From a virus (taxonomy: Duplodnaviria; Heunggongvirae; Uroviricota; Caudoviricetes): 64,000 bases of DNA. A program made the position numbers and the translations under genes. Where the stretch lies: the IMG/VR virus record IMGVR_UViG_2773857866_000003; one strand, given 5' to 3'. Positions within the stretch are counted from its first letter, which is position 1. The number at the start of each line of letters is the position of its first letter. Shown here piece after piece: positions 3,264-39,659 of the stretch. A model generated the notes under the pieces. It was not told the origin of the DNA. It ran no database searches and saw nothing but the letters and a program-made list of their open reading frames with translations.

Positions 3264-3812
3264 TTACTCCTTCTTGTCGGTACTTCCAAACCCTCCGTTA
3301 CGCACTCCTGTACAATCATCATCAACTGTCAATCCATAAGGCAAGAAAATGCCTTGTGCAAAACCTTCTCCTCGTTTGATTTTTACTGTTTTGTCACCTC
3401 TATTGACCAACTTCACAAAAATATGTCCTTCGTTGTCACTGTAAGCGTAATCTGCGTCCACTATCCCTGTTCCATTACAAAGATTTACCTGATACTTAAA
3501 TCCTAATCCACTTCTAGGAAAAATCTGCAATACCCAATCATTATTCATTTCACATCTAATTCCTGTAGGAATTTTGATTGTTTCTCCGGGTTTTAATCCA
3601 ACAAAGTCTACCGGACTGAAAAAATCGTATCCGGCACTTCCTGCTGTTGCTCTCTTAGGAAGTTTGATATTATCGTACATGTCTTTTACATATTTCTCTT
3701 TAATATTATCTGGTAATGTAAACGTATCCATCATATCCTTAAAAAACTGTTCATAAGTTACTTTCTCAAATTTTGCTATTCTTCTGTTTACTATATACTC
3801 AGCATTATTCAT
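3264..3812 (-). CDS. dut: dUTP diphosphatase (trimeric dUTPase family)
   Basis: dUTPase motifs are present: AGSAGYDF, PRSGLG, GIVDADYAY, plus a C-terminal glycine-rich arm (RNGGFGSTD). Confidence 0.8.
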   Translation of the reverse strand: MNNAEYIVNRRIAKFEKVTYEQFFKDMMDTFTLPDNIKEKYVKDMYDNIKLPKRATAGSAGYDFFSPVDFVGLKPGETIKIPTGIRCEMNNDWVLQIFPRSGLGFKYQVNLCNGTGIVDADYAYSDNEGHIFVKLVNRGDKTVKIKRGEGFAQGIFLPYGLTVDDDCTGVRNGGFGSTDKKE

Positions 3813-6190: not shown

Positions 6191-6789
6191 CTCAGTGTTG
6201 GCTTTCCATCATAATCCTTATCCCAAACAAACCAAGCGTACATTTTTGTTCCACCATTTTTTGGTTTTTCTTCTCCATAAGGAAACATTGTCACTCTATC
6301 TGAATGTATGTACAGATGTCTTAAATGACTTTCTTCTAATAACTGTTTTCTTTCTTTACTTGACAAAAAGAAAATATTTAAAAGCAGAATAACTTTGTGT
6401 CTTGAAATCCTTAAAAATTCCTTTAACAAACTTCCACCTTTATTTTCTTTTAAGGTCATTAAGTTGTATGGAGGATTAGTAAACACTACATCACAAACAT
6501 TATCTTCAATGTCATAAACATCTACACCTTTATTTCCTTTAATGTATTCTTCTGTTTGGATATCTGAACATTTTAGGTTTTCAAATCCGTATATTTGTAG
6601 TACATCACTGATTGCTCCTGCGCCCACACAAGGTTCATAAATTTCTTCATATTTATTTATCAATCCATCTGTGAGCAATGCTTCAATTACTTTTTCAGTA
6701 GCCCATTTCGGAGTTTCGTAAAAATCAAATTCATCATTACGTTTTCTTCCAGTGATGTTACTGCCGTTTAATGTTTTATTGTCCGACAT
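6181..6789 (-). CDS. DNA N6-adenine methyltransferase (NPPY)
   Basis: EPCVGAGAISD (motif I) and VVFTNPPYN (motif IV) are both present. Confidence 0.75.
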   Translation of the reverse strand: MSDNKTLNGSNITGRKRNDEFDFYETPKWATEKVIEALLTDGLINKYEEIYEPCVGAGAISDVLQIYGFENLKCSDIQTEEYIKGNKGVDVYDIEDNVCDVVFTNPPYNLMTLKENKGGSLLKEFLRISRHKVILLLNIFFLSSKERKQLLEESHLRHLYIHSDRVTMFPYGEEKPKNGGTKMYAWFVWDKDYDGKPTLSWI

Positions 6790-7492
6790 TTACATCACCT
6801 TCTTTCAATCGGTCTTTAGCAATATTAAAATATTCTTCTTCTTTCTCAATTCCGATGAATTTTCGATTGAGATTTTTACAAGCTTCACCAGTCGTTCCTG
6901 ACCCCATCGTAAAGTCTAAAACAGTATCTCCTTCATTTGTCCAAATTGTTACGCAGCGTTCCATAAGCTGCAATGGCTTTTGGGTCGGATGTCCATTTCT
7001 TTCCTTGCTCCAAGGTACAATTGGAGAAATATCATACCAGACATTTGTTAATGCTCTGCATTCTTGTCCATTTTTCTTTCCCATTCCTCCAGTTTTCTTA
7101 GGAATATTGGAATAAATTTTATTAAATGTAGGTTTATCACCTTTGCAATACCAAAGGATGTCTTCTCTCGTAGATACAAAATTCTTCTTGGCTCCACGTC
7201 CCTTAATTCTATCCCACACAATCCAGTTCTGAATTTCAAATTTTTCATCCAACAGTTCTTTGGTTTGCAATACATTAGACCATCCTTGAAATAGAATTAA
7301 ATTACCATTATCTTTTAGTAGGTCATAACATAAGTTAATTGCTAATGGCATATTAAATTCTTTATCCCAATCTGCCTGTTTTATTAGATAAGGCGGATCA
7401 CAGATAATTGCATCTACTTTTACATCCTGTTTAATTAAGTCATTCATGACATCAAAACAGTCAGCTTGATATAATTCAATATCTTTTTTCAT
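6776..7492 (-). CDS. DNA methyltransferase, beta-class (motif IV before motif I; ParB-MTase N4/N6 type)
   Basis: N-terminal DAIICDPPYL (DPPY) and C-terminal VLDFTMGSGTTGEAC (SAM-binding) are both present. Confidence 0.8.
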   Translation of the reverse strand: MKKDIELYQADCFDVMNDLIKQDVKVDAIICDPPYLIKQADWDKEFNMPLAINLCYDLLKDNGNLILFQGWSNVLQTKELLDEKFEIQNWIVWDRIKGRGAKKNFVSTREDILWYCKGDKPTFNKIYSNIPKKTGGMGKKNGQECRALTNVWYDISPIVPWSKERNGHPTQKPLQLMERCVTIWTNEGDTVLDFTMGSGTTGEACKNLNRKFIGIEKEEEYFNIAKDRLKEGDVNVGQ

Positions 7493-7499
7493 CTTTTTA

Positions 7500-7550
7500 C
7501 CAGAAAGCCCACATGGTTTACAGTAGCTACACTTATTGTCCTTTCTGATT
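7500..7550 (-). promoter_or_regulatory. conserved intergenic inverted-repeat element upstream of an MTase start; copy 1
   Basis: Same hairpin-capable repeat as the 8292..8347 copy. Confidence 0.5.
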
Positions 7551-8241
7551 AATTATTGTTTATTCTATCTTTCGCTATTTCAAAATATTTTTCTTCTTTT
7601 TCAATTCCAATAAAACGTCTATTTAAATTCTTACATGATAAACCTGTTGTACCTGACCCCATACAATTATCTAAAACCAAATCACCCTCATTTGTATACG
7701 TTTTAACCATATATTCACATAATGCTAGTGGTTTTTGTGTAGGATGTAAATAACAAGTTTGCTTATCGCTAGGAAATGTTAATACACTTCGAGGATAGCG
7801 TATGGTTTCTCCACCGCCGCTAATCTCTTTATTCATCTTTCCATAAATTTCTGTATTATTTTGTGTTGTTATATATTTTGTATATGAATGTATTGGCTCA
7901 TGACCCTCTGTCATTTGAGGATTATATGTTGGTAATTTTTTATAAAACACTAATAAATTCTCATGGGCTTTCATAGGCATCTTTTTAGCATTTAAATGTC
8001 CAGTGGCTTGTGTTTTTTCCCATATCCATTCGTATCTCAGCATTTTTAAATTTGAAGCTCCTAGTACTTTATCAAACGGTGTTTGAGCAAATAATACAAT
8101 CGCACCATTTTCCTTAATAATACGACAATATTGTTTCCATAGTTCTTCAAGAGATATTATTGAGTCCCATTTACATTTTGTTGTCCCATAAGGTAAATCA
8201 CACAAAATCATGTCAATACTTTCATCAGAAATATTATTCAT
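7549..8241 (-). CDS. DNA methyltransferase, beta-class paralogue. Homology to its neighbour continues 14 codons upstream of the first ATG, back to an ATT at 8283..8281.
   Basis: MILCDLPYG and VLDNCMGSGTTGLSC are present. The upstream in-frame stretch IKDIELWHGDCLEL matches MKKDIELYQADCFDV of the paralogue, and the ATG position is occupied by ATT. Confidence 0.7.
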   Translation of the reverse strand: MNNISDESIDMILCDLPYGTTKCKWDSIISLEELWKQYCRIIKENGAIVLFAQTPFDKVLGASNLKMLRYEWIWEKTQATGHLNAKKMPMKAHENLLVFYKKLPTYNPQMTEGHEPIHSYTKYITTQNNTEIYGKMNKEISGGGETIRYPRSVLTFPSDKQTCYLHPTQKPLALCEYMVKTYTNEGDLVLDNCMGSGTTGLSCKNLNRRFIGIEKEEKYFEIAKDRINNN

Positions 8242-8566: not shown

Positions 8567-8776
8567 CTATTTACGTTCCAACGCTTCTCCATAAGTGATA
8601 AAGACTATCTTTCCTATATCTGAATAATGAAACAGGAAAGCGTGTTGTTCTTTCTCTTCAATACCAACAAAGTAATCCTCTTCAACAGTTCTCACTGTTA
8701 AACGTAGAACTTCGTTAATATCCTGTTTAGGAAGTTTCCTGAGATAAAAGATTTTATCCTTCTTTTTTAATCGCAT
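8567..8776 (-). CDS. hypothetical protein
   Basis: 69 aa ORF that overlaps the ribonucleotide reductase stop. Confidence 0.4.
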   Translation of the reverse strand: MRLKKKDKIFYLRKLPKQDINEVLRLTVRTVEEDYFVGIEEKEQHAFLFHYSDIGKIVFITYGEALERK

Positions 8777-11058
8777 TTGCTAAATCCACAATTTTTACAG
8801 GAATTGCATCCCCCTTCAAACACTAATGGAGAGCCACATTCAGGGCAAGGAACTATCTGACTCTTGTCAACAGGTTTAATTCCCAATCTTTTTCCACGCT
8901 TAATAGTCTCTTTGTTTTTAATCGGTTTTTCATCTACATCTTCAAATAACTCTCCTTGTAACTCTTTATACATATTAAGGAGCGCATTTCCAACTGCAAC
9001 AGGACAACTGCTTCCAATGCTAGTGTCATGCTTTGTAGCTGTTCTTACTGCATAAGAAGGACAAGTACCTGAAGACTTTAACTGGTCTACAATGGAGTAA
9101 ATATCTACTCCTGCTCTTGCAGAAAGTGAAATCAATCTGGAAAGACCTGTAAGGCTATTTAGGCATCCACCTTTCGAGCCTTTGCTTAAATATGTTTCAA
9201 GTAAATCGCCTGTATCTGGATCAAAAAACGCTTCACAATGCAATGTTCCACATCCTGTTTGTAATGTGCGTTTCTTTCCAATGCAATTATCATCTGCTTT
9301 AATAATCATTCCACGTTGCAATGTAATAGGCACATTGCTGTCTGAGTTATTTTCTTTTGTTTCTTTTTTCTTATTATCTGTCGTTAAAATACCTGTACGT
9401 TTACATCCATCTCTAAAAATAGTGACACCTTTCAATCCCTTTTCCCACGCATAAAGGTATAAGTCTTCAGTATCTTTAACAGTAAAATTATTTGGTACAT
9501 TTACTGTAGAACTAATAGATGCATCAATATGTCTCTGCCAGATAGACTGCATATCTATTCTTTCTTTATAATTAAGCGTTTGCGCTGTTACAAAGAAATC
9601 TGGTAATTCAGAATCATCTTTTAATCCATATTCATCAATATATTTTTTAACAATAGGCGTATATACTTTGTAATATTCATCATGCCCATGCAGAGACTCT
9701 GTTTTTCTTGTATAGTAATTTGCATAAACAGGCTCAATTCCTCCTGATACACCTAACATACTTGACAAGCTTCCTGTAGGAGCAATGGTTAAAAGTTGGG
9801 AATTACAAAGTCCTATTTCAGAAATATTTTCACGATATAATTCGTCAATGTGTTCGGTGAAAAATGGGGACTGTTTTACTGCATCTGGTTTATACTTTGG
9901 GTAAGAACCAACTTCAATTGCGATTGAATTTGAAGTCATAATAGCTTGATATGCCATTGCATGACCAATCATATCGCATAAATCAATTGACTCAGGTGAG
10001 CCGTATTTAATTCCTATTTTAATTAATAAGTCTGCTAGTCCAAAAATCCCTAAACCTATCTGTCTCCAATCTCTAACTGACTCTCTTTGTTCTTTCAATG
10101 GATGCAATGGTAATCCTTCATCTAAAACAATATTTAATGCTCGGACAGCAATATCAACTGTCTTTTTGAAATCTGTAAAATTAAAAGTTTTATTTTCTGT
10201 TACGAATTCGGATAAATTAATACTTCCAAGCAAACACGAACCTCCGGCTGGTAAGGGTTCTTCAGCGCATGGATTCGTGCCCGCATAAGAAAATTCTTTA
10301 TCTGCACTAAGTAAATTCCAATTTTCAATTCTATCCCAGAAAAGCATTCCAGGTTCTGCATAATCCCAGTTCATCTCACATAGTTTATGAAATACTGAAT
10401 ATGCGTCAATTTCTTTCCTAATTGTTTCACCAGTTTCTTCTCTGGTAAAACTTAATACAAAAGGTTTTCTCATTTTTACTGCCAACATAAACTTATCGGT
10501 AATTCGTATTGAGATATTTGCTTTTGTCACTTTATCTAAATCAGACTTAATTTCAATAAATTCTTCTAAATCAGGATGGTCGCAAGCAATTGAAATCATC
10601 AATGCTCCCCTTCTCCCATTCTGACCGATTAAACCAGTAACCAAACTATATAAATCCATAAAACTAACTGAACCACTGGTTTCTTTTGCAGTATTTGTTA
10701 CTCTTGCTCCTTTCGGTGCAAGTTTTGAAATATCCACACCGCAGCCTCCACCATAACTATAGGTACGTGCTAATTTTTTTGCACAGTCAAAGATTGATTC
10801 AATATTATCTTCAGGTGGTTCAACCACATAGCAATTTGAAAGTGTGACTTTTTCACCTAATTTGTCTAACCCTCTATTAGATAAAATCCTTCCACCAAAC
10901 AAAAACTTCTTCTCAAGAATCAACTGTCTTAAATCACTATCTCCACCACTAACTCTATCAAGCCATTCATCGAAGCTTTCATTGTTATAACGATATTTTT
11001 TATTCCATATATCAATACCTAGTGTATTATCTTTTCCTAACCATTGTTCTACTGTCAT
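8767..11058 (-). CDS. ribonucleotide reductase large subunit, probably monomeric class II (B12-dependent) type
   Basis: NPCAEEPL matches the active-site NPCGE-type loop; there is a C-terminal Cys pair plus a zinc ribbon (CPECGS...CNSCKNCG); no adjacent small-subunit gene is seen. Confidence 0.75.
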   Translation of the reverse strand: MTVEQWLGKDNTLGIDIWNKKYRYNNESFDEWLDRVSGGDSDLRQLILEKKFLFGGRILSNRGLDKLGEKVTLSNCYVVEPPEDNIESIFDCAKKLARTYSYGGGCGVDISKLAPKGARVTNTAKETSGSVSFMDLYSLVTGLIGQNGRRGALMISIACDHPDLEEFIEIKSDLDKVTKANISIRITDKFMLAVKMRKPFVLSFTREETGETIRKEIDAYSVFHKLCEMNWDYAEPGMLFWDRIENWNLLSADKEFSYAGTNPCAEEPLPAGGSCLLGSINLSEFVTENKTFNFTDFKKTVDIAVRALNIVLDEGLPLHPLKEQRESVRDWRQIGLGIFGLADLLIKIGIKYGSPESIDLCDMIGHAMAYQAIMTSNSIAIEVGSYPKYKPDAVKQSPFFTEHIDELYRENISEIGLCNSQLLTIAPTGSLSSMLGVSGGIEPVYANYYTRKTESLHGHDEYYKVYTPIVKKYIDEYGLKDDSELPDFFVTAQTLNYKERIDMQSIWQRHIDASISSTVNVPNNFTVKDTEDLYLYAWEKGLKGVTIFRDGCKRTGILTTDNKKKETKENNSDSNVPITLQRGMIIKADDNCIGKKRTLQTGCGTLHCEAFFDPDTGDLLETYLSKGSKGGCLNSLTGLSRLISLSARAGVDIYSIVDQLKSSGTCPSYAVRTATKHDTSIGSSCPVAVGNALLNMYKELQGELFEDVDEKPIKNKETIKRGKRLGIKPVDKSQIVPCPECGSPLVFEGGCNSCKNCGFSKCD

Positions 11059-11072
11059 TTCTTATCTCCTTT

Positions 11073-13367
11073 TTAAAATACTGGTTTTTCTACTTTTTCT
11101 ATTGCTTCAACTAAATATGTTTGTTTACTGCTTATGGCATTTTGTCCCACTGCATATCTCAAAGCATTGGTTTGACATTCTAATTTACAATGCTTACTAG
11201 CTCTTGTAATTGCAGTATATATTAGCTCTTTTGTGAGCATAGAATATGAACCAAAATCTAACCCAACTAAAACATAAGGATATTGACTGCCCTGTGACTT
11301 GTGTACTGTAATTGCATAACTTAACTCCACACTAGAAAGCTGCTTCGATAATATCAAAATTTTACCTATGTATTGGAAATTCACTACTATCTCATTTCGC
11401 TCAAAATTTATTGCCTCAATTATCCCAATACTGCCATTAAAAACTCCAGTTATATTACTTATCTCTTCATACTCTTTCTGGTCATATTCCCACTGATTGT
11501 CGTACAATAAGGCTTTATATGTATTAGCAGTATACATTACTTTATCTCCCACTCTTAAATTTGCAGAATAGCTCGGAGAATATCTTACAATGATTTCTTC
11601 TTCATCATCTCTAGGATTATATAATTCCTGAAATGCTGCATTTAATTGATGTATCCCAGACTGACGCTCTCTAATTGGAACAATTACCTGTAAATCTAAT
11701 ATAGAGTCCACTTTATTTATCCATTCTGCAAAATCTCTACATAAATTAAAATATGTGTTATTTGCATCGCTGTAACAGTTGTATTCTAAGTCTTGTAAAT
11801 CACCTTTCGTTAAATGTCCTACAAAGTCTTTATCAATTACCTGTATGTTTTTTCTTATTTTTAAACTATCTGTAATAATTGCGGAGGCTTCTGCCTGCCT
11901 ATGAATTTTAGTCAAGTTTATAGAAGGAATATATTGACTTTCAATTAAATCATGAGCAATATTTCCGCTACCAATACATTCCAACTGACCTGTATCACCT
12001 AGCATGATTAACTTAGAACCGGGCTTAATTGCATCTATCAATCTATAGAATAACTTAGAGTCAACCATTGAAATTTCATCACAAATTATAATGTCGTATG
12101 GAAGATAATTACCTTCGTAAAAAGCAAACCCTCCATGCTCTTTATCGCCAAGTGGAAATCCCAGTAATCTGTGAATTGTAAATCCTTCTTCTCCTGTGAC
12201 TTCAGCTAATCGTGCAGCCGCCCTTCCAGCTAAAGCACATTGAGCAAATCTCTTTCTCCATAGAACTCTTAATACACCTCTCACAAAAGAAGTTTTTCCT
12301 GTTCCACCGCCACCTGTAACGATGAAGACGTTTTCTATTAAAGCAGTTCTTATACATTCATATTGTTGGTCTGTATATTCCCAGCCTTGTTCTTTTTCAA
12401 CTTCTGAAATGATTTCTTCCCAACCATCAAAGTTAAATGTATTCTCTGCCTTTTTTAATTGAATAAGCTTTTGAGCAATTTTCTCTTCTAGCTCAATATT
12501 CTTTTTAAATGCTACCTTACTCCTATCTTCATTCCACCATAGAAATTTATCTAAATCTTTCATGGCTTCTAAAATAGGTTCGTCAGGAATATCTTCTCCA
12601 AGCATAGTAACAATAGCATCCATAAGCTGTTCATTTGCATATACATAAGTACAACCTTTCTCAGCCATCTCATATAAATATCTTTTTACAAATGCTGTTA
12701 CTCTTTCTTTAGAGTATATTCCCATCCCACCTTTTAGAGCTAACTCGTCACATTTTTTCCAACCAATTCCATGAATGTCAATTAAGGTATATGGATTTTG
12801 TTTTACATTCTTAATAATCACATCCGCAGATTTATAGTGCTCATATAGCTTTTCTACCATATTTGCTGTAAGGTTGTACTCTTTTAATTCTACAAAAACT
12901 CTACTTTTATCAATATTTTCATGGAAACGTTCCAGCCATTTATTTGCAGTTTTTAGCCCAACACCTTTAACCTTTACTAAGTCAGAAGCCTCTTTATTAT
13001 AAAGTGCCATATAAGGATTTTCTAAAGCTGCATACATTGCATCAATTTGCTTGTCAGTGAATAAAACATGGAGAAATTCTCTTTGTCCTTTTAAGTCTGA
13101 TACGTCTACGCAAAGATTAGTGTACATACTAATTACTTCATATTGATATCCCCATTTAGAGTCTTCTACCAACTTAGCATTGAGTGTGTACTTTACATTA
13201 GATTTTAATTCAGGCATAATTCCTTTCACTATCATTTGCCCGTATTTATCTTTTTGTATTTCATCTGTTGTTTCAACTATGTCAGCACAAATGATGCCAA
13301 AATTGTTACTATTGTTGTAATATCGTATTTTTTTTACTTTTATCAATGCTGATATTCTATCATTCAT
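11073..13367 (-). CDS. RecD/Pif1-like SF1B DNA helicase
   Basis: Walker A FIVTGGGGTGKTS, Walker B IIICDEISMVD, and a C-terminal HKSQGSQYPYVLVGL motif (UvrD_C_2-like). Confidence 0.8.
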   Translation of the reverse strand: MNDRISALIKVKKIRYYNNSNNFGIICADIVETTDEIQKDKYGQMIVKGIMPELKSNVKYTLNAKLVEDSKWGYQYEVISMYTNLCVDVSDLKGQREFLHVLFTDKQIDAMYAALENPYMALYNKEASDLVKVKGVGLKTANKWLERFHENIDKSRVFVELKEYNLTANMVEKLYEHYKSADVIIKNVKQNPYTLIDIHGIGWKKCDELALKGGMGIYSKERVTAFVKRYLYEMAEKGCTYVYANEQLMDAIVTMLGEDIPDEPILEAMKDLDKFLWWNEDRSKVAFKKNIELEEKIAQKLIQLKKAENTFNFDGWEEIISEVEKEQGWEYTDQQYECIRTALIENVFIVTGGGGTGKTSFVRGVLRVLWRKRFAQCALAGRAAARLAEVTGEEGFTIHRLLGFPLGDKEHGGFAFYEGNYLPYDIIICDEISMVDSKLFYRLIDAIKPGSKLIMLGDTGQLECIGSGNIAHDLIESQYIPSINLTKIHRQAEASAIITDSLKIRKNIQVIDKDFVGHLTKGDLQDLEYNCYSDANNTYFNLCRDFAEWINKVDSILDLQVIVPIRERQSGIHQLNAAFQELYNPRDDEEEIIVRYSPSYSANLRVGDKVMYTANTYKALLYDNQWEYDQKEYEEISNITGVFNGSIGIIEAINFERNEIVVNFQYIGKILILSKQLSSVELSYAITVHKSQGSQYPYVLVGLDFGSYSMLTKELIYTAITRASKHCKLECQTNALRYAVGQNAISSKQTYLVEAIEKVEKPVF

Positions 13368-14831
13368 TTATATTTAACCTTTCAACTGAAGCTAGAATAG
13401 AACCATCATCATTTACTTTTTTAATTAACATACAGGAGTGCTTATAAGCACTATCAGCATATTTATAAGCTCTAAATATATCATTTTGCCTATATCCGCA
13501 TACGGCTATTTTATTACCTCTTTTGAACCATGATTTTTCCAGTACCTTTTTATTCCCATTCTCATCTATGCTGCTTATTTGCTGGTCATAATGAACAAAC
13601 TGTCCTTTGCTAAATTTCACCATAACAACTCCTGTTTTAGTAAGCAGTGTTACAAGATGTTTGTCTTTGTTTTTATCTAATACTGTACCGGAAATTCTTT
13701 TTATCCTGTATTTAGGGAATTTTTTTACTTCAGTTCTCCAAGTGTCACCTTCTTTAATTTTTATACGTTTTGTATATGTGTCATATATTTCAGGCTCTTC
13801 CGGCATTTCATAAAAATCTTCAATTCCATACATGTTATCTTTCATATTTTTCAACTCATGCTCAGTTGTTGCATAAATTGAAAGTGAGTCCATTTCCCAT
13901 TTAGATAGAGTTCCACTCGCATTTTCTTCCAATGCTTCTTGAACTAAGTAATAATTGTATTGTTCTAATGTAGTCTCTAAAGTCAACCATTCTTTAAGTG
14001 GTGCTATATGGGTTTTGTTCTCTTTTATGAATCTCTTCTCAGATATCACATAGAATTCATCAATTACTGCCTCGACACTATCTTCGCTATAATATTGAAT
14101 AAAAAACCTCATAGAGGTTTCATCCAATTTGAACAATCTATCATGATAACCAGCTTTAGGAACTTTCTTTCCATCAATAATGACGTTCTTGTAAAAGAAA
14201 TAATCATCCAAAACATATTTCTTAAAATTTACATGTCTGATTGCTAATTGAAGTTTTTCTGGTATGAAGTTATATTTTTCATTTAAAACAAGTAATTTGT
14301 TAAATTGCTGCATGCCCAGCGCATTACATTTGCTTACTAAAAATTCTGAAATATATTCTTTCATAAGTTCTATTCTGTCTGTGTTACTTATTTCATCAAA
14401 AACTCCTGCTTTGATAAGTTGCATCATTTGAGAGTTTTTAACTAACTTTGTTTTGATCATTCTTTCATAAAAATCCTGCATATCTCTATAAGGTCTGTTT
14501 TCCAATAAAATTCTTACAACGTCATCGCCTATACCGTTAATTGCTTTTAAGGCATAAATGATACGATTGTTCTCTTCATCTGGATAAAAACCGAAATTGG
14601 CTTGATTGATATATGGAAGCGCAATAGGAATATTCCTTTTCTGCATATTAGATATTGCAGTTGCAATTTTTCCATAATCTGTAGATTTGTTTTCTTCAAC
14701 TTCCTCATCTGCTCCTGCATCAACAATAAGACATGCTGTATTCCAGTAGATGATGGGATAATGATATGCTAGATTTAATTCCTGAACTCCTATACAGGAG
14801 TAAGGAAAAGTATGATTTTTCGAAAATGAAT
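13360..14831 (-). CDS. dnaE: DNA polymerase III alpha (DnaE-type), exon 3
   Basis: The frame stays open upstream of the track-called Met as far as 14831. GYSFSKNHTFPYSCIGVQELNLAYHYP aligns to DnaE [27 protein letters not shown]. An HhH motif (LKAINGIGDDVV) lies downstream. Confidence 0.7.
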
Positions 14832-15312
14832 CATTTGTAGACTATCTCTTGAGTGAATGTGTTTATTCAAAATCATCTGAAATTATAAGTATTAAATATT
14901 AATTTTTGTTATACTTAACATCTGATTCCAATTCTAAAAAATTAGCCTTATTGTATTCACATTCAGTTTCAAGACATATATTACAATACTTTGTATTTTT
15001 CTCAGACATGTTATTACATAATCCTAGAAATTTATAATTAATTTTAAAATTTGATATTGTGAACGATAAACAATGCGTCATGCTTAATCTCCTTTCTAAC
15101 TTCAGACCACATTCACCCTATCTCTGCGCTCCCAGATGTGCTAATCTCACCTGTACCCGTACTCATGCTTTCGCCTTTCCGATAGTCGTTACACCCGATT
15201 TAACTTGGCACGGTATTATTTACTGTTTCTACGTAACCTTCACCGTTAGCACTACTTTTGTAGTACACCGCTTTTGCTTGCGTTCACAGAGTTTTACTTG
15301 AGCACTCATTTT
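14832..15312 (-). other. group I intron 2 in dnaE (ORF-less, 481 nt)
   Basis: The segment is GC-enriched and stop-rich. Junctions placed to restore DnaE homology leave the 5' exon ending in U (cttgggt) and the intron ending in G (ctacaaatg), as expected for group I. Confidence 0.6.
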
Positions 15313-15771
15313 ACCCAAGCTGCTTTCCTACTACTTCATTCCAGATGTAGTTCAGCAGATTGTCTGAAGTTCCTATTCCTCTACCTGCTTCAAAAAATGT
15401 ATGTTTCATTTTTTGCTGTAATTCTTTATCTTTTTTGGCTATACTCTTACGTAGCTTATTAGACTCAGCTACGCTAAAATTCGCAATATGCTCATCCATA
15501 GATAATTCCATTACAATTTCCTGAGTATCACCAACACCATATACAGGTAGTAAATACGGTTCGATAATCTTAATTTCTACTTCTGTAAGATGGTACTCTT
15601 CTCTCATGCACTTATACCATTCAGATATATCGTTTTTATATCTGATATAAGTATCAATAGGCTGTTCCCCATCTGTTACCATGAGTCGCATAATGCTATT
15701 TGCTGTAGCCAATTCTACTAAACTGTGAGGTTGAATACGTTTAGCTGCCTGTAACCCAACCTGTGTATCAA
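15313..15771 (-). CDS. dnaE: DNA polymerase III alpha (DnaE-type), exon 2
   Basis: AESNKLRKSIAKKDKELQQKMKHTFFEAGRGIG aligns to E. coli DnaE [33 protein letters not shown]; the ORF ends at a stop immediately after KQLG. Confidence 0.7.
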
Positions 15772-16750
15772 CATTTTGTTCATTTGTAGTCGCTACACTA
15801 CAAACCGTCATCTTTCATGACTGCTTGCGCTCTCACGCAAGTTCAGACTATATCTTTTCCAATCTCCATTTCAGACACCAAACACTTGTATCTTACGCCT
15901 CACTAATGAGGTCTTACTAGTCGTTGAACCTTCTCAAATAACCAAATTTTTGTTCATAAAATATTCTTTTTTGCTTTGCCTCTTCAAGAGTATCGAAATC
16001 TTCATCTATAACATTACCATCGAGGTCAATTATTCTCATTCTGTATGTTTTTCCACTTCTTTTTTTATTGTAGTGAACACCATTAAAAGGGATTTCTTTA
16101 TTTTTTTCTGCTGTAGTTTTATTTCTCGCATTGATTTGAGGTGTAACAATTCTAAGATTTGACTTTATATTGATTAGAGGATTTCTATTTATGTGGTCAA
16201 CAACTGTATTTGTATCCGTTTTATTCATGACAAGATTATATAAATAGATTTTCTCTCCGTGAGTACGAGACATTGGATAACCATTCACATTAAGTTGCCA
16301 ATAATATTTTTTAACTTTTCCTAAATCTTCTGTGTCAATTAAAATATCAATTATCTTGGAATTTTTCTGTTCCCAGTAGTATATATGCGTTTCATTTCCG
16401 TCTATTTTATATGGGTTCCATATTTTTTCATCTTGATTATAACTTTGTTCTACAACAGCTTTTAGAAGTTCACCATATCTTTTTACAGAATAACTTGCTT
16501 TATTATCATCGCTAAATTTTACTATTACTCTTGTATCATATTCATATATTGCTTTCACATATTCACACCTCCTCGTGTGTATTCTAGTTTTGGTTATTTA
16601 AGCTTGGCTGCGGATTGTCTAATTCTGATGCTTTTTACCCTATCTCCGACATTACTCTTTGCCATGTGTTCTTTGCAGAACACATTTGGTACATCAGACT
16701 CTAAAGAGTTTCCCGCAATTAAAAGACTTTTAATTCAGCCTGATATTACA
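15772..16750 (-). mobile_element. group I intron 1 in dnaE carrying an HNH-AP2 homing endonuclease gene (979 nt)
   Basis: It lies between exon 1 (ends ttt cag t) and exon 2 (tt gat aca...) and the intron ends in G (aatg). It contains a free-standing HNH ORF and has structured GC-richer flanks. Confidence 0.6.
15917..16558 (-). CDS. HNH homing endonuclease with AP2 DNA-binding domain (intron-encoded)
   Basis: VVDHINRNPLINIKSNLRIVTPQINARN is an HNH_3 motif; GVHYNKKRSGKTYRMRII is an AP2-like domain. Confidence 0.8.
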   Translation of the reverse strand: MKAIYEYDTRVIVKFSDDNKASYSVKRYGELLKAVVEQSYNQDEKIWNPYKIDGNETHIYYWEQKNSKIIDILIDTEDLGKVKKYYWQLNVNGYPMSRTHGEKIYLYNLVMNKTDTNTVVDHINRNPLINIKSNLRIVTPQINARNKTTAEKNKEIPFNGVHYNKKRSGKTYRMRIIDLDGNVIDEDFDTLEEAKQKRIFYEQKFGYLRRFND

Positions 16751-18776
16751 TCCACTGAAATAAATCCATTACTTTATTCTCGGCTATCCAATCCCACATT
16801 TCTTTTGTTTCGTAATCTAAAACATCAGGATGTAAGTATTTGTTATATGTATCTCTTAACGTTCCTTGCCATTGCATGTGCCCTGCTTCAATAAGTAGCT
16901 CCATACAATGTCTAACGATATCAAGAGATGAGATTGTCAACATATCTTGTTTCAAACCTCCACACCAATCTGAGTCGTGCATGTTGAATTGCGTTATATA
17001 AGTACCGTTTGGTGCTTTCATCCTAGCATTATGTTCTATAAAATCATCATTGAACAGATACACTGCTGACGCATGTATGCTTCGTCCGCTTATAAGACCT
17101 TCTATATTTAATGCAGTTTCTAATAAATTAGGAATTTTTTTAATCTCATTTGCAAATTCGATAACAGGTTTTCTTTCCTCTTCCTCATTCCCATATAAGC
17201 AATCATGTATAGACCATGTAAAACCTCTTGTAATAGGAATAAGATTTGCAATGTGTTGAGCAATGTCATTATCAACTCCTAATCCTCTAGCCGCTGTAAT
17301 AACTGCGGATTTACTTCCTTCTGTTTTAAACGTACAGCTATTGAGAACTCTACGTTCGCCTTTACGTTTTTTAATTGCATTTACAATTTGTTTTCTTCTA
17401 TTCCTTTGTGAATCTAAATCTATATCCGCTAATTCTGGGCGTTCATGAGATATATGTCTCCAATGAGGTAATCCCCATTGTATAGGGTTCATTTGTATCA
17501 ATCCAATTAAATACATGGTATACATACCTGTTACTGAACCTCTGGCTACTCCAACTAAAGAGTCTCCTTCATTCCACATAATCTCAATCAATTCCAATGT
17601 TGATATGTAATAAGAAGAAATGCTGTTTTTAATCTTCTCTGTAACTTTCCACATCTCGGAAAGCTCTATTTCTATCCTATCAATCAAGATTTTAAGTTCT
17701 TCGTCTTTAATTCCAACATAGTATCCTTTTGTTTTAAAACCCTGAGAAATTAAATGAAGTAAATATCTATCATACTTATTGTCGCTGTAAGCAAATTTTC
17801 TAATATATTCATGTGTATCATAGAAATCTTTGAAATAGTGTTCTTCTTGATATTCCGGTATATTTGCTTCTGGAACAATGGTTGAATGAGCAAGTGTATA
17901 ATTACTTACTTTGTCTGCTATAACTTCTGTATTTCTAATTGCTTTATTAACATTCTCTTCTCCAATTTGCCAATCTAAATACTCATGTATCTCTGTCACA
18001 TTCATCATGTAAGTGGTTGCATAAAAATCACCAACTTCTCTTTCTTCTTCATGAGAATTTAAATATGCTTCATGAAATACCCTATCTTCTTTATTTACAT
18101 AGTGTGCATCACAGGTAACGATAAATGGGATATCCAATTGTTCAGAAATGCTTATCAGAGTTTTATTTACTAAGACTTGTTCTTCAGAATTGTTTGGTTG
18201 AAGTTCAAAATAAAAATCTTCTCCAAATAAATCATAACAGTATTGCACAAATTCATTAAATTTTTCTACATCTTTATTTAATATCCAATGTGAACATTCG
18301 CCACCAAGACATGCAGTGCTTGCAATTAAATGTCCGGGGTTTTCTTTTACAATTTTTTCTAAATCTGATTTTAAAGTTGGAGTTCTTTCCATTTTTCCTG
18401 TCTTGAAACTATTATCCCAAGCTAAAGAACTTAAAATTCTTAATTGTTTATGTCCAATTTCATCTTTTGCCAATAGTATGAAATGCCAAAATTTAGTAAT
18501 ACCTGATTTATAATTGTCTCTTACTTCTTCTAAAGAATTTACTAAATATATTTCATTTCCCAATATCAGCTTAAAATCTTCTGGTATAGAACCTTCAGAT
18601 TTTCCTTTTTCTACAATCTGCAAAGCTTGAACATGACCAGAAACACTTTCATGGTCTGTTATTGCTATACCAGAGTTATTCAGATTTACTGCTTTTTGTA
18701 TCAATTTAGATACCTTATTAATAGAGTCAATCAGACGAATATTTGAATAATCACTATGTACATGCAAATGTAACAT
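16751..18776 (-). CDS. dnaE: DNA polymerase III alpha (DnaE-type), exon 1 (PHP and polymerase core N-terminal part)
   Basis: The N-terminus MLHLHVHSDYSNIRLID is a PHP domain start. The C-terminal part LKQDMLTISSLDIV...VMDLFQ aligns to DnaE KMDFLGLRTLTII...TAVFQ. Confidence 0.75.
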
Positions 18777-18791
18777 ATTATCTACCTCTTT

Positions 18792-19784
18792 CTAAAATAT
18801 ACGTCTTGGTTTTGCATCCTCTCCCGGTATCCATTCCTTATTTACTTTAAATACTTTATTGTCTGGCTTCCAGAGAGAATGATATACACACAACCCACCA
18901 TATCTGCTATCAGCATTTGGCGTATGTGACTTGCTTGCAAAATCGCACCAATAACATAATGGTGTTGGACTTGGCTTATAAATATTACTTTTCTCAAATT
19001 CATCAATTAGAGAAAGTAATTTGTCAATTTTTTTCAAACCTCTTTTTAAATATCCTTTTGAACAAACACCATCTTCTGTTGTCTGCTTTTTATCTAAGAG
19101 GATAAAATCATATTCATGATACATTGGAAGCCTTCCATATTTAAAAACACATGCAATATCATAAATTACCATCTGCAAAGGTGTTTTGATATCAGCATCT
19201 CTAAATACTCGTTTTGAAGATTTATAATCAATAACTTTGATTTCTCCGTCTTCGTTTTGATCTAATCTGTCTATAAAACCATGTACTATGCAGCGATTAT
19301 CATAAACAAATTCAAAATGGTCTTCCACGGCGAATACGTTCCATTCCGGATTTTCCATTCTGGATTGAATAACAGAATTTAAATATACTTCCATTTTGTC
19401 GTTGTAATTAAATCCTGTATTCTCATCCTTTGTCATCCAGTCTTCCATATATCTTTTTTTAATGTCATTTGTTCCCGGAAGAAATGCTGTACTTTTATCA
19501 GTCTTTTCTTCACATCCTTCGACTACGGATGTTTTAATGTAATCATAATCTACATCTTGACCTTCAATTTTATTTCTTCCTTTAATTTCTAAACCTTTAT
19601 GAAGAATTGTGCCTAACTCTAATGCTAATGTTTTAGAGTTTGCATAATTACCATCAATATATTTCATTTTATAACGGTAAGCACAATTCTCAAAAAGGCT
19701 TAGTTTTGAATAAGATACCGTAAGCAACTTACCTCTATCAGTATCTTCTACTGGTCGAATTTTTTCTAAGATTGTTTCTAACAA
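18792..19784 (-). CDS. PD-(D/E)XK nuclease, Cas4/RecB-like with C-terminal Cys cluster
   Basis: A VIDYKSSK (D..K) motif, C-terminal CYWCDF...GGLCVYH, and one N-terminal Cys give a four-Cys Fe-S pattern. Confidence 0.55.
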   Translation of the reverse strand: MLETILEKIRPVEDTDRGKLLTVSYSKLSLFENCAYRYKMKYIDGNYANSKTLALELGTILHKGLEIKGRNKIEGQDVDYDYIKTSVVEGCEEKTDKSTAFLPGTNDIKKRYMEDWMTKDENTGFNYNDKMEVYLNSVIQSRMENPEWNVFAVEDHFEFVYDNRCIVHGFIDRLDQNEDGEIKVIDYKSSKRVFRDADIKTPLQMVIYDIACVFKYGRLPMYHEYDFILLDKKQTTEDGVCSKGYLKRGLKKIDKLLSLIDEFEKSNIYKPSPTPLCYWCDFASKSHTPNADSRYGGLCVYHSLWKPDNKVFKVNKEWIPGEDAKPRRIF

Positions 19785-38158: not shown

Positions 38159-38232
38159 TCAGAACACTAGGACTCGAACCTAGAACGAAAGCTTCCAACA
38201 CTAACCGAGTTACCCATTACTCTCATATTCTG
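38159..38232 (-). ncRNA. tRNA-like element, 74 nt (possible degenerate tRNA with UGG anticodon loop GTTGGAA; weak anticodon stem)
   Basis: Acceptor CAGAATA/TGTTCTG with one GU pair, a T arm CTAGG-TTCGAGT-CCTAG, and a D loop containing GGG. Confidence 0.35.
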
Positions 38233-38235
38233 TTG

Positions 38236-38362
38236 TGCGGAGAAGCAAGACTCGAACCTGCGACATCTGGCTCCCTAAGCAATATGTATGTTGCTGCATG
38301 TAACGAATATTTTACATCGCTACAATTTTAACAGTGCTCTATCCATCTGAGCTATTCTCCGC
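38236..38362 (-). ncRNA. tRNA-like RNA with ~55 nt insertion in the anticodon-arm position (Y-RNA/YrlA-like candidate), 127 nt
   Basis: 8 bp acceptor GCGGAGAA/TTCTCCGC, D arm GCTCAGATGGATAGAGC, T arm GCAGG-TTCGAGT-CTTGC, and an insert carrying TTGTAG and TTACATGCAGCAA. Confidence 0.5.
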
Positions 38363-38368
38363 ATATTT

Positions 38369-38496
38369 TGCAGGACAACCGGACTCGAACCGATAACCAC
38401 GGCGTTAAAAGCGCATTAGAAATAATTGCTGTATGTAACATATTTATAACAATACTACAAAGTTTACGTGCTCTAGCCAATTGAGCTATGTCCTGC
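38369..38496 (-). ncRNA. tRNA-like RNA with ~55 nt insertion (paralogue of 38236..38362), 128 nt
   Basis: 8 bp acceptor GCAGGACA/TGTCCTGC, D arm GCTCAATTGGCTAGAGC, T arm ATCGG-TTCGAGT-CCGGT, and an insert carrying TTGTAG and TTACATACAGCAA. Confidence 0.5.
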
Positions 38497-38519
38497 ATAT
38501 TAAATTTTCTCAGCTACAT

Positions 38520-38623
38520 TTAATTGTGATGGATTTGAACCATCTCGAAATATTTTGTCATAATACTTTCTTTAACCATTTGTTTTATATTTTGCTGTAT
38601 GTAACTGATTTGAATTTTTCATT
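38520..38623 (-). ncRNA. degenerate tRNA-like/structured RNA carrying the same TTACATACAGCAA motif
   Basis: The 3' T arm GATGG-TTCAAAT-CCATC and a 9 bp imperfect terminal helix are present, but there is no canonical D arm. Confidence 0.25.
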
Positions 38624-38836
38624 CACAATAAATCGTTACTTTATTGCAGTTCTCTTATGAACTTCTGCATTTCACAATGCAGTTTTACCCTATTCTCTTT
38701 ACCTCTACTTAGAGTGCTACGAATTAGAAATATTGTTTCCTTTTACGATTGGGGCATGTCCTTGAGTAAATTTATTTGGAAGTGATTTATATGTTTGAAA
38801 ATATATTTCAAAATTTTAAAGTTATAGCTCAAGGAA

Positions 38837-38910
38837 TTGCGGAGAGTGGATTTGAACCACTGATCTTTAGCTGATGAGGCTAACGAGCTTCCAGACTGCT
38901 CTACTCCGCA
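38837..38910 (-). tRNA. tRNA-Met (anticodon CAT), 74 nt
   Basis: The hand-folded cloverleaf is complete: acceptor TGCGGAG/CTCCGCA, D GAGC-AGTCTGGAA-GCTC, anticodon stem TTAGC/GCTAA with loop CTCATCA, T AGTGG-TTCAAAT-CCACT. Confidence 0.65.
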
Positions 38911-38981
38911 TCAGAATTGCAGTTATTCCTGCAACTCATTTAAAAGTAAATAAAAAAGATAACCTCTCCAACAAAGGAGCT

Positions 38982-39091
38982 TGCAATGAGCAAGAGTCGA
39001 ACTTGCGACCTGCTGGTTTGTTTTGCTGTCTACAATGTATTTTTAACAACATTGTTTTTGCCAGCCGTTCTCCCAACTGAACTATCATTGC
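38982..39091 (-). ncRNA. tRNA-like RNA with intact anticodon stem but a 44 nt loop, 110 nt
   Basis: Acceptor GCAATGA/TCATTGC, D GTTC-AGTTGGGA-GAAC, anticodon stem GCTGG/CCAGC enclosing CAAAAACAATGTTGTTAAAAATACATTGTAGACAGCAAAACAAA, and T GCAAG-TTCGACT-CTTGC. Confidence 0.5.
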
Positions 39092-39174
39092 ATTTATTTT
39101 TACCTTTACCCTGTAGAGTATTGCATTTTTGGGGGTGTGTTAGGGGTGTTTAAAAATACAGAGTAAAGATAAAA

Positions 39175-39246
39175 CTGGGATAGCTGGATTCGAACCAGCG
39201 AATACAGGAGTCAAAGTCCTGTGCCTTACCGCTTGGCGATACCCCA
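39175..39246 (-). tRNA. tRNA-Gln (anticodon TTG), 72 nt
   Basis: Acceptor TGGGGTA/TATCCCA, D GCC-AAGCGGTAA-GGC, anticodon stem CAGGA/TCCTG with loop CTTTGAC, T GCTGG-TTCGAAT-CCAGC. Confidence 0.8.
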
Positions 39247-39293
39247 AGAAAGGAGTCTACTATTTGAAAAAAATCATAAAGCAAATAGTAGAG

Positions 39294-39441
39294 AGATAAG
39301 CAATGGATTTGAACCATCTCTATAATGTAAAGTCTGTTTCATGTGCACATTCCACATTCATCGCATCATATTTTACTCGTTCCATATCATACTTTCCTTA
39401 GTTCGTGCACGTTCCAAAGATTTCTGTTGAGTATGCTTATC
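39294..39441 (-). ncRNA. 148 nt structured RNA with tRNA-like acceptor and T arm enclosing a ~130 nt insert that has two GTGCAC-centred palindromes
   Basis: The termini GATAAGC/GCTTATC pair, and there is a T arm GATGG-TTCAAAT-CCATT. The interior holds ACGTGCACGAAC and ATGTGCACATG palindromes and a TTTACAT motif; there is no D arm. Confidence 0.35.
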
Positions 39442-39585
39442 AAAATTAGTAGACTCAAAGGCTCATTACCTCTCATGAGTAAGGGATAAAACCTTAGTAA
39501 AAACTGTTACTTGTACAGGTACGCATTACAGTAAAAACTATATCTACTCTGTTTTTATGGCAATTGATTTAATCTATCAGCCTAA

Positions 39586-39659
39586 TGGGGCTTATAGGAC
39601 TCGAACCTATGACTTCTCGGTTATGAGCCGAGCGTTCTAACCAACTGAACTAAAGCCCC
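39586..39659 (-). tRNA. tRNA with CAT anticodon (Met or lysidine-Ile2), 74 nt
   Basis: Acceptor GGGGCTT/AAGCCCC, D GTTC-AGTTGGTTA-GAAC, anticodon stem CTCGG/CCGAG with loop CTCATAA, T ATAGG-TTCGAGT-CCTAT. Confidence 0.8.

Follow-up and report, generated by a model that had tools for sequence, protein, structure and literature searches.

Does the 64,000-nucleotide (nt) virus sequence IMGVR_UViG_2773857866_000003 (Caudoviricetes; the whole stretch is called the window here) carry a broken DNA polymerase gene, or a gene that becomes whole once its RNA is spliced? Three open reading frame (ORF) pieces are flanked by the genes for a PD-(D/E)XK nuclease (18792..19784) and a RecD-like helicase (11073..13367); the pieces and all features of the locus described below are on the minus strand. 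A preliminary description of the window had read the pieces as consecutive segments of one DnaE gene, separated by two group I introns of which the first encodes a homing endonuclease. The sequence comparisons presented here lead to a similar view with corrected boundaries: the region is very probably a single gene, broken by two unrelated group I introns, with which an SPbeta-like phage or prophage encodes its replicative DNA polymerase of the DnaE (YorL-like) type.

Joining the three pieces gives a frame that is open throughout, has no frameshift and encodes 1317 amino acids (aa). Pfam finds the PHP, DNA_pol3_alpha, fingers and HHH_6 domains in the product as one collinear chain (expectation values, E, of 9e-24, 8e-40, 1e-20 and 8e-15, respectively). 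The alignment to a DnaE structure that had been proposed as a check on the collinear reading bears it out: Thermus aquaticus (Taq) Pol III alpha (2HPI) aligns without a break across both junctions (E=1.5e-63). SPbeta YorL is 47% identical to the joined product over 100% of its length, and uninterrupted metagenomic homologs of 1301-1342 aa are up to 72% identical to it.

Exon 1 (16754..18776) comprises codons 1-674 and the first base of codon 675, ends in …UUUCAGU, and encodes the PHP domain and the Pol III alpha core. Its end is set by 25 homologs and by the empty sites of the relatives L001 and L362. Exon 2 (15313..15771) is 459 nt, exactly 153 codons, encodes part of the fingers domain, and is a stand-alone ORF in many relatives. 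Exon 3 (13360..14831) encodes the remainder of the fingers domain with the YSFSKNH motif, HHH_6 and the C-terminal region, and ends with the stop codon; its frame is open for 62 codons 5' of the ATG at 14646, as had been described. Intron 1 (15772..16753) is a 982-nt group I element with an extended P5 of the P5abc type and an HNH ORF in its P6a loop. Intron 2 (14832..15312), which is inserted at YorL codon 827/828, is a 481-nt IA-type element of the family that includes the ribonucleotide reductase (RNR) introns of SPbeta and the recA intron of 0305phi8-36. The introns end with a G at 15772 and 14832, respectively.

Both junctions can be fixed because uninterrupted homologs and natural empty-site alleles match the predicted ligation products, CAGU|UUGAUAC (…TTTCAGT|TTGATACACAG…) and GGGU|AUUCAUU (…CTTGGGT|ATTCATTTTCG…). 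At junction 1, all 25 of the uninterrupted homologs aligned there read LFQ|F(D/Q/N/S)T, a pattern obtained only by joining an exon 1 end at 16754 (…UUUCAGU) to 15771 (UUGAUAC…). The DNA of L001, whose protein is 83% identical and which lacks intron 1, equals the predicted ligation across 29 nt; intron-less sequence of the L001 type reads GATTTATTTCAGTTTGATACACAGGTTGG. At junction 2, L371, which lacks intron 2, reads …CAGCTGGGGT|ATTCATTTTCT…, and the predicted ligation in the window is …CAGCTTGGGT|ATTCATTTTCG…. The peptides predicted to span the junctions are …VMDLFQFDTQVG… or VMDLFQFDTQVGLQAAK at junction 1 and …GKQLGYSFSK… or QLGYSFSK at junction 2.

These alignments leave exon 2, intron 2 and exon 3 exactly where the preliminary description had placed them, with the empty site of L371 matching junction 2, and they move the end of exon 1. 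The end given previously, 16751, would leave the exon ending in A and add a W-I found in no homolog; the true end is 16754 (…CAGU). The shift of 3 nt lengthens intron 1 from the 979 nt first reported to 982 nt and shortens the product from 1318 to 1317 aa. The claim that a U precedes and a G ends each intron failed at the former boundary of exon 1; with that end moved to 16754, it holds at both introns. The introns had also been called GC-enriched. This applies only to their ribozyme segments, whose guanine-plus-cytosine content is 38-41% for intron 1 and 44% for the core of intron 2, the window averaging 32%; taken whole, the introns are average at 32-33%, their ORF and loop inserts being AT-rich (23-29% GC). 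Both introns split codons in phase 1. Since exon 2 is 153 codons long and both introns are in phase 1, skipping of exon 2 would keep the frame (…FQ-Y-SFSK…). Synonymous differences flank junction 2 when intron-plus and intron-less alleles are compared (window 14815..15320 and L371:6230-6270): CTT versus CTG upstream, and TCG AAA versus TCT AAG downstream. They could reflect a P1 pairing requirement, co-conversion, or protection of an endonuclease target.

Are the inserts group I introns? As had been proposed, both can be read in this way from the U•G pair, the terminal G, P10, and core helices that covary. In intron 1 the sequence contains an internal guide, GCUGAA (16734..16739), that pairs with the exon end UUCAGU (16754..16759) over 6 base pairs (bp), forming P1 with a U•G at the splice site; this pairing holds only with the corrected junction at 16754. 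A P10 strand, UAUCA (16741..16745), likewise read from the sequence, is complementary to UGAUA of exon 2, and the 3' end of the intron is …AACAAAAUG|UUGAUAC. The 5' ribozyme half (16559..16733) holds P3 5' (16723..16727), P4 (16712..16717 with 16609..16614), P5/P5a/P5b/P5c, P6 5' (16606..16608) and P6a 5' (16589..16602), as well as a Shine-Dalgarno sequence, GGAGG (16568..16572). The 3' half (15772..15916) holds a P7.1-like hairpin (15898..15911), P3 3' (AAGAU, 15890..15894), a poorly defined P8 region, the joining segment J8/7 with P7 3' (AAGAUAUAGUC, 15846..15856), P9 (15824..15841), P9.1 (15808..15820), P9.2 (15784..15803) and the terminal G. P7 is present as GACUA/UAGUC.

Relatives of intron 1 provide evidence that these helices are maintained. 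An 18-mer covering P4'/P6, GACAATCCGCAGCCAAGC, was found in more than 119 viral contigs, and about 70 of the places that contain it align to the ORF-deleted intron 1; 11 of these loci give 18 Intron_gpI matches of 50.8-100.3 bits. When the ORF-deleted window intron and 15 relative RNAs were aligned without regard to structure, RNAalifold recovered P3, P4, P5, the P5abc-type extension, P6 and P6a. Paired cells make up 93.2% of the family alignment, as against 35-45% with slid partners; changes on both sides occur in 37 of 46 pairs, and none of 500 shuffles reaches the observed values. The window intron itself forms 39 of the 42 consensus pairs, and a profile built without it finds intron 1 as its sole match in the 64 kb (E=3e-22). 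Compensatory changes are seen in the 3' half of the L374 copy, where the CCUCA…UGAGG of the P7.1-like hairpin has become CCUU…AAGG. An alternative in which P3' is the AAGAC right after P7 and CCUCA…UGAGG is P8 was rejected in favor of the AAGAU downstream (15890..15894), because only there does pairing survive the changes in L374, a G>A on the 5' side and AAGAU>AGGAU on the 3' side; in L375, too, P3' lies downstream. Sequence and structure thus support intron 1 as a predicted group I intron.

The ORF in intron 1 (15917..16558) has a GTG start and spans 642 nt, encoding a putative HNH homing endonuclease of 213 aa. It lies in the loop of the 14-bp P6a stem, and its last approximately 11 codons also encode P6a 3' (15933..15946), P6 3' (15928..15930), J6/7 and P7 5' (GACUA, 15918..15922), so that its UAG stop codon overlaps P7. 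Such an overlap has precedents among the group I introns of other phages and of Bacillus (PMC2248736). The product matches phrog_99 (E=4.4e-17), and its match to Pfam HNH_3 (E=0.0011) is 19 bits, under the 24.8-bit cut-off; the homologs match HNH_3 in 14 of 14 cases, with a best E of 1.6e-9. A profile of the family also matches the structure 1U3E (E=0.003), which is that of I-HmuI, an HNH nicking enzyme from the polymerase intron of SPO1, and the DH…N…N residues are invariant in the family. The preliminary description had called the enzyme HNH_3/AP2. The HNH part of this label holds (phrog_99, all 14 homologs, 1U3E). The AP2 part is plausible but weak: AP2 (PF00847) gave no match in the window protein at E<=10; 3 of the 14 homologs match (best E=2.5e-5), and the family profile meets the AP2/ERF structure 7ET4 at E=0.8. 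Homologs of the endonuclease with 53-91% identity occupy the same YorL site in L371-L376, and in L375 and L376 they lie within a polymerase only 40% identical to that of the window.

In intron 2 the internal guide GCUCAAG (15297..15303), read from the sequence, pairs with the exon end CUUGGGU (15313..15319) over 7 bp with a U•G at the splice site, and a P10 strand, AAUGA (15306..15310), pairs with UCAUU of exon 3 (14825..14829). The exon end CTTGGGT is kept in all copies among close relatives (L001, L002, L362, L364 and L374); the more distant L014 and L366 differ. The core (15122..15291) consists of P3 (15285..15291 with 15122..15128), hairpin A (15269..15282), hairpin B (15249..15266), P4 (15241..15246 with 15210..15215), P5 (15218..15238), P6 (15193..15209), P7 5' (15181..15187), P7.1 (15159..15180) and P7.2 (15133..15153), the last two hairpins being read by eye only. 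P8 (14853..15116) is closed by a 9-bp stem, GUGAAUGUG (15108..15116) with CACAUUCAC (14853..14861). The 3' end (14832..14851) comprises J8/7 and P7 3' (CAAGAGAUAGUC, 14840..14851), a short tail (UACAAAUG) and the terminal G, giving the boundary …ACAAAUG|AUUCAUU. By eye, AAUACCGUGCCAAG (P4'/P6), AAGAGAUAGUC (J8/7-P7') and the P7.1/P7.2 hairpins correspond to elements of the classic group I consensus, as does GGUGUAACGACUAUC (J6/7-P7), which resembles T4 td and Azoarcus. An alternative P3, in which the GCUA preceding P4 would pair with a UAGC in the loop of P7.2, was rejected, since the sequence of that loop is not conserved across the family and GCUAACGG is invariant. A second AGAGAUAGG…AAUG at about 15125 was likewise discarded as an alternative 3' splice signal, being P3 3' and the start of P8.

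Relatives of intron 2 were collected with two 14-mers, one for viral contigs (AATACCGTGCCAAG) and one for genome contigs (GGTGAGATTAGCAC). The matches listed are mostly chance; filtering with nhmmer left about 28 relatives among the viral-contig matches listed for AATACCGTGCCAAG, to which copies in YorL relatives were added. All 7 positions of P3 pair in 24 of 24 copies, in about 14 sequence variants, and RNAalifold on a structure-blind alignment of the family recovered P3, the two hairpins, P4 and P5. For the full structure in 22 family members, 95% of cells are paired, versus 29-45% with slid partners; cells with a double change number 104, versus 33±5 in shuffles, and 0 of 500 shuffles reach the observed covariation. 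Compensatory changes are also found in P8 when L001, L364, L374 and the window are compared, the window stem being altered on both sides relative to L001 and L374. A profile made only from copies in other genes has intron 2 as its sole match in the 64 kb (E=1.2e-21); no further copies of either intron were found elsewhere in the window. The family departs from the canonical order P1-P2-P3-J3/4-P4 in having no P2 and in carrying two covarying hairpins (15249..15282) between the 5' strand of P3 and the UAA-P4 segment. The two-hairpin layout also occurs at L369:1510-1545, L370:2010-2045 and L377:2510-2545, and since the recA intron of 0305phi8-36 shares it, it is a family trait and not a defect of the window copy. 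Together these features support the classification of intron 2 as a probable IA-type group I intron.

The P8 loop of the window copy holds an insert of 225 nt with 23% GC at about 14862..15107. Within it is a 60-aa orphan ORF (14899..15081), preceded by a Shine-Dalgarno sequence, AGGAG (15089..15093), for which no Pfam or PHROG match and no homologs were found. Most of the ORF-bearing family copies examined have an endonuclease ORF in the P8 loop. Among YorL relatives the loop contains a NUMOD4/HNH gene in L374 and L364, a decayed one in L001 and none in L002 and L362; the orphan shares no DNA or protein similarity with that gene and was rejected as its remnant. Other ORF positions in the family are after P7 3' (L101), upstream of P3 (0305phi8-36) and in P6a (SPbetaL3).

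Several observations weigh against the view that both inserts are functional group I introns. The gathering threshold of Rfam RF00028 (Intron_gpI) is 50 bits, and a scan of the window, the check the preliminary description had proposed, gave no match at that level on either intron. A permissive scan had a mixed outcome: intron 1 yielded two Intron_gpI pieces flanking the ORF, P4-P6 at 21.4 bits (E=0.013) and P7-P9 at 25.1 bits (E=0.001), and intron 2 yielded no match even at E<=10. The ORF-less, 244-nt copy of intron 2 in L002 gave none at E<=1, and the copies in L001, L002, L362, L364 and L366 gave none at gathering level. No convincing P8 stem was found in the window intron 1. The P7 pseudoknot of intron 2 (GACUA/UAGUC) is complementary in 22 of 22 copies and matches the universal consensus, and because it never varies it has no support from covariation. 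The 225-nt insert might slow the folding of intron 2. Splicing of both introns at this locus is what we infer from sequence, and the tie of the intron 2 family to an intron that splices runs through B. anthracis recA, whose intron splices in vitro and in vivo and has a published "partial match" to the 0305phi8-36 intron (PMC2504315). Intron 1 falls below the threshold because its 642-nt ORF splits the core; relatives free of such an ORF reach 50.8-100.3 bits. Entire group I subgroups are documented to escape RF00028 (PMC6125680), so the silence of this model on intron 2 is weak evidence that counts against membership in RF00028 and not against a group I intron.

On the same observations one could argue that one or both introns have decayed and no longer splice, leaving the polymerase a pseudogene in a defective prophage. 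The poorly defined P8 region of intron 1, the loss of an endonuclease gene from intron 2, whose P8 loop holds AT-rich sequence unrelated to it, and the failure of either to reach the Rfam threshold would all be expected of it. What makes this unlikely is the state of the sequence: the three exons are open, collinear and free of frameshifts, and their proteins are 97.5-98.9% identical to those of L371; the ribozyme halves of intron 1 are unchanged relative to L371 although the ORF between them has diverged to 91%; relative to L374, both exon 1 and the ORF have diverged more than the ribozyme segments of intron 1; compensatory changes keep helices paired even among close relatives; and the same arrangement recurs in many independent contigs. 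The inserts would instead be excised as protein if they were inteins, which two YorL homologs, P0077 and P0078, do carry, with Intein_splicing and LAGLIDADG_3 domains. In the window, stops in the exon frame follow two codons into intron 1 (UGG AUG UAA) and at once in intron 2 (GGG UAA); the inserts therefore cannot be translated in frame, and inteins are excluded. Group II introns fare no better, as no group II family matched at E<=10 in 14700..16900, the only ORFs present are the HNH gene and the 60-aa orphan with no reverse transcriptase, and the RNAs fit a group I structure. That the inserts belong to either class is exceedingly improbable, in agreement with the preliminary description.

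A further possibility is that selfish DNA has truly fragmented the gene and that three polypeptides assemble without any RNA splicing. There is precedent in a phage ribonucleotide reductase that is split by a homing endonuclease gene and works as assembled pieces (PMC3045599); gene callers give separate ORFs in many relatives of the window polymerase, and deposited phage records list dnaE_1 and dnaE_2 as separate proteins. Against this, neither exon 2 nor exon 3 has its own ribosome-binding site or start codon at the junction, exon 2 starts in the middle of a codon and exon 3 in phase 1, the breaks fall inside the fingers domain, and complete ribozyme cores with guides matched to their flanks would not be needed. 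Assembly from three polypeptides is accordingly judged very unlikely.

If the two elements are spliced group I introns, each would, once transcribed, fold into a group I core whose internal guide base-pairs with the last nucleotides of the preceding exon (P1) and presents the U•G at the cleavage site to attack by a free guanosine. The guide would then align the downstream exon through P10, and the exons would be ligated after the terminal G of the intron, the outcome being an mRNA for the 1317-aa polymerase. In co-infected cells, polymerase alleles that lack intron 1 are probably nicked or cut by its HNH enzyme, with repair copying the intron in (homing); both the activity and the homing are proposed by analogy with I-HmuI-type enzymes. 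Intron 2 has lost the NUMOD4/HNH gene that relatives carry in the P8 loop and is probably now an element that only splices.

How the introns are distributed among relatives bears on this mobility. Polymerases that are 72-99% identical occur in all four states: with neither intron (P0001), with intron 2 only (L001, L002 and L362), with intron 1 only (L371-L373) and with both (the window and L374). A single protein cluster at 90% identity brings together intact (1322 aa) and split (830 + 474 aa) forms. Polymorphism in their presence among relatives that are 88-99% identical shows that both introns are mobile. In a comparison with L371 (window 15772..17353), identity is 100% for the final 600 nt of exon 1 and for the two ribozyme halves of intron 1 and drops to 91.3% inside the HNH ORF, and exon 2 is 95.9% identical; this mosaic suggests recombination within or around the endonuclease gene. 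The site at aa 827, in the conserved G-YSFSxxH fingers motif, is occupied across polymerases that are only about 40% identical.

Further interruptions were observed in YorL relatives at about aa 440 (L104), about aa 483 (L368:2935-3396), about aa 603-606 (L366 and L367) and about aa 613-618 (L362, L364 and L365); the elements at these sites have GIY-YIG or LAGLIDADG-like ORFs, or none. In the Staphylococcus phage SPbeta-like (NC_029119), the gap between dnaE_2 and dnaE_1 matches the profile of the intron 2 family (E=3e-11), and no intron is annotated there. We tentatively propose that the YorL/DnaE-type polymerase of SPbeta-like phages may be an unrecognized major hotspot of homing elements, with at least six intron sites (at about aa 440, 483, 605, 615, 674 and 827) in addition to inteins, and that the aa-827 family, being invisible to the only group I model in Rfam, leads to routine misannotation of these genes as fragments. 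Introns in phage polymerases of this type seem to be unreported; no report of them, at what are at least six sites across relatives, was found in the literature searched.

A group I element with an endonuclease in a phage gene is of a well-known kind, and nothing here changes how group I introns work. The main value lies in annotation. Gene callers and deposited records show these polymerases as two or three unrelated fragments (dnaE_1/dnaE_2 of the Staphylococcus phage SPbeta-like, for example), and an essential replication gene looks broken because a standard RNA-family scan flags neither intron. The IA introns of the SPbeta-RNR/recA type need a covariance model specific to their subgroup. 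The natural allele series, with all four intron combinations in genes that are 72-99% identical, is useful for the study of homing, of endonuclease gain and loss, and of co-conversion, and it includes competing endonuclease types (HNH, NUMOD4-HNH, GIY-YIG and LAGLIDADG-like).

The genes near the polymerase (primase, nuclease, helicase and RNR) and the contigs of relatives, which are 0.4-2 Mb long, suggest that the window comes from an SPbeta-like phage or prophage whose host has a low GC content. Megablast comparison of the region and its downstream flank with phage genomes gave no informative match. The RNR large subunit of the window is an intact ORF of 763 aa (8767..11058). Downstream of it, two N6/N4 DNA methylase ORFs of 238 and 230 aa lie next to each other, and a dUTPase is also present (6776..8241 and 3264..3812, minus strand). 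The RNR large-subunit gene of L362, whose polymerase is 87-90% identical to that of the window and lacks intron 1, is in two ORFs separated by a gap of about 320 nt (L362:11610-14085) that is probably another intron. A cluster of four tRNA genes, with Rfam tRNA scores of 36-76 bits, lies at 38159..39659 (minus strand).

Phage replication genes that contain group I introns are a classic finding. The polymerase introns of the Bacillus phages SPO1 and SP82 (I-HmuI, I-HmuII) and Bastille (I-BasI) resemble the window locus in that a group I intron interrupts a replicative polymerase gene and encodes, in one of its peripheral loops, an HNH endonuclease. Their hosts are family A (Pol I-like) polymerases, as are all the intron-bearing phage polymerases in reviews (PMC3984707), whereas the window gene is a family C DnaE/YorL polymerase with two introns of different families, and its endonuclease is only distantly related to I-HmuI. 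SPbeta YorL resembles the joined product in sequence, and relatives share the neighbors of the gene, a primase, a DnaB-like helicase, a PD-(D/E)XK nuclease, a RecD-like helicase and RNR; yorL of SPbeta itself is uninterrupted, and a review of SPbeta mentions introns in bnrdE and bnrdF only (PMC8270828). Intron 1 shares its core, AAUUGCGGGAAA…GACAAUCCGCAGCCAAGC…GGUUCAACGACUA…AAGAUAUAGUC, and its extended P5 with the P5abc-bearing RF00028 introns of phage and giant-virus contigs, and differs from them in being split by the P6a ORF (into the pieces of 25 and 21 bits) and in its extra P7.1-like hairpin. Intron 2 differs from the RNR and recA introns in its host gene and its insertion site within YorL, in having no endonuclease gene, and in its very short 3' tail without P9 and its unrelated AT-rich P8 insert. 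The recA introns of 0305phi8-36 and the B. cereus group have been described as a mix of IA1 and IA3 (PMC2504315). In its core, its two hairpins, P7.1/P7.2 and the peripheral-loop ORFs of its family, intron 2 is like these introns and those of the SPbeta-type RNR genes (bnrdE/bnrdF), and it too interrupts a gene of DNA metabolism in an SPbeta-like phage; the same layout is seen in the mobile intron annotated in recA of 0305phi8-36 and in the RNR introns of phiNIT1 and SPbetaL3.

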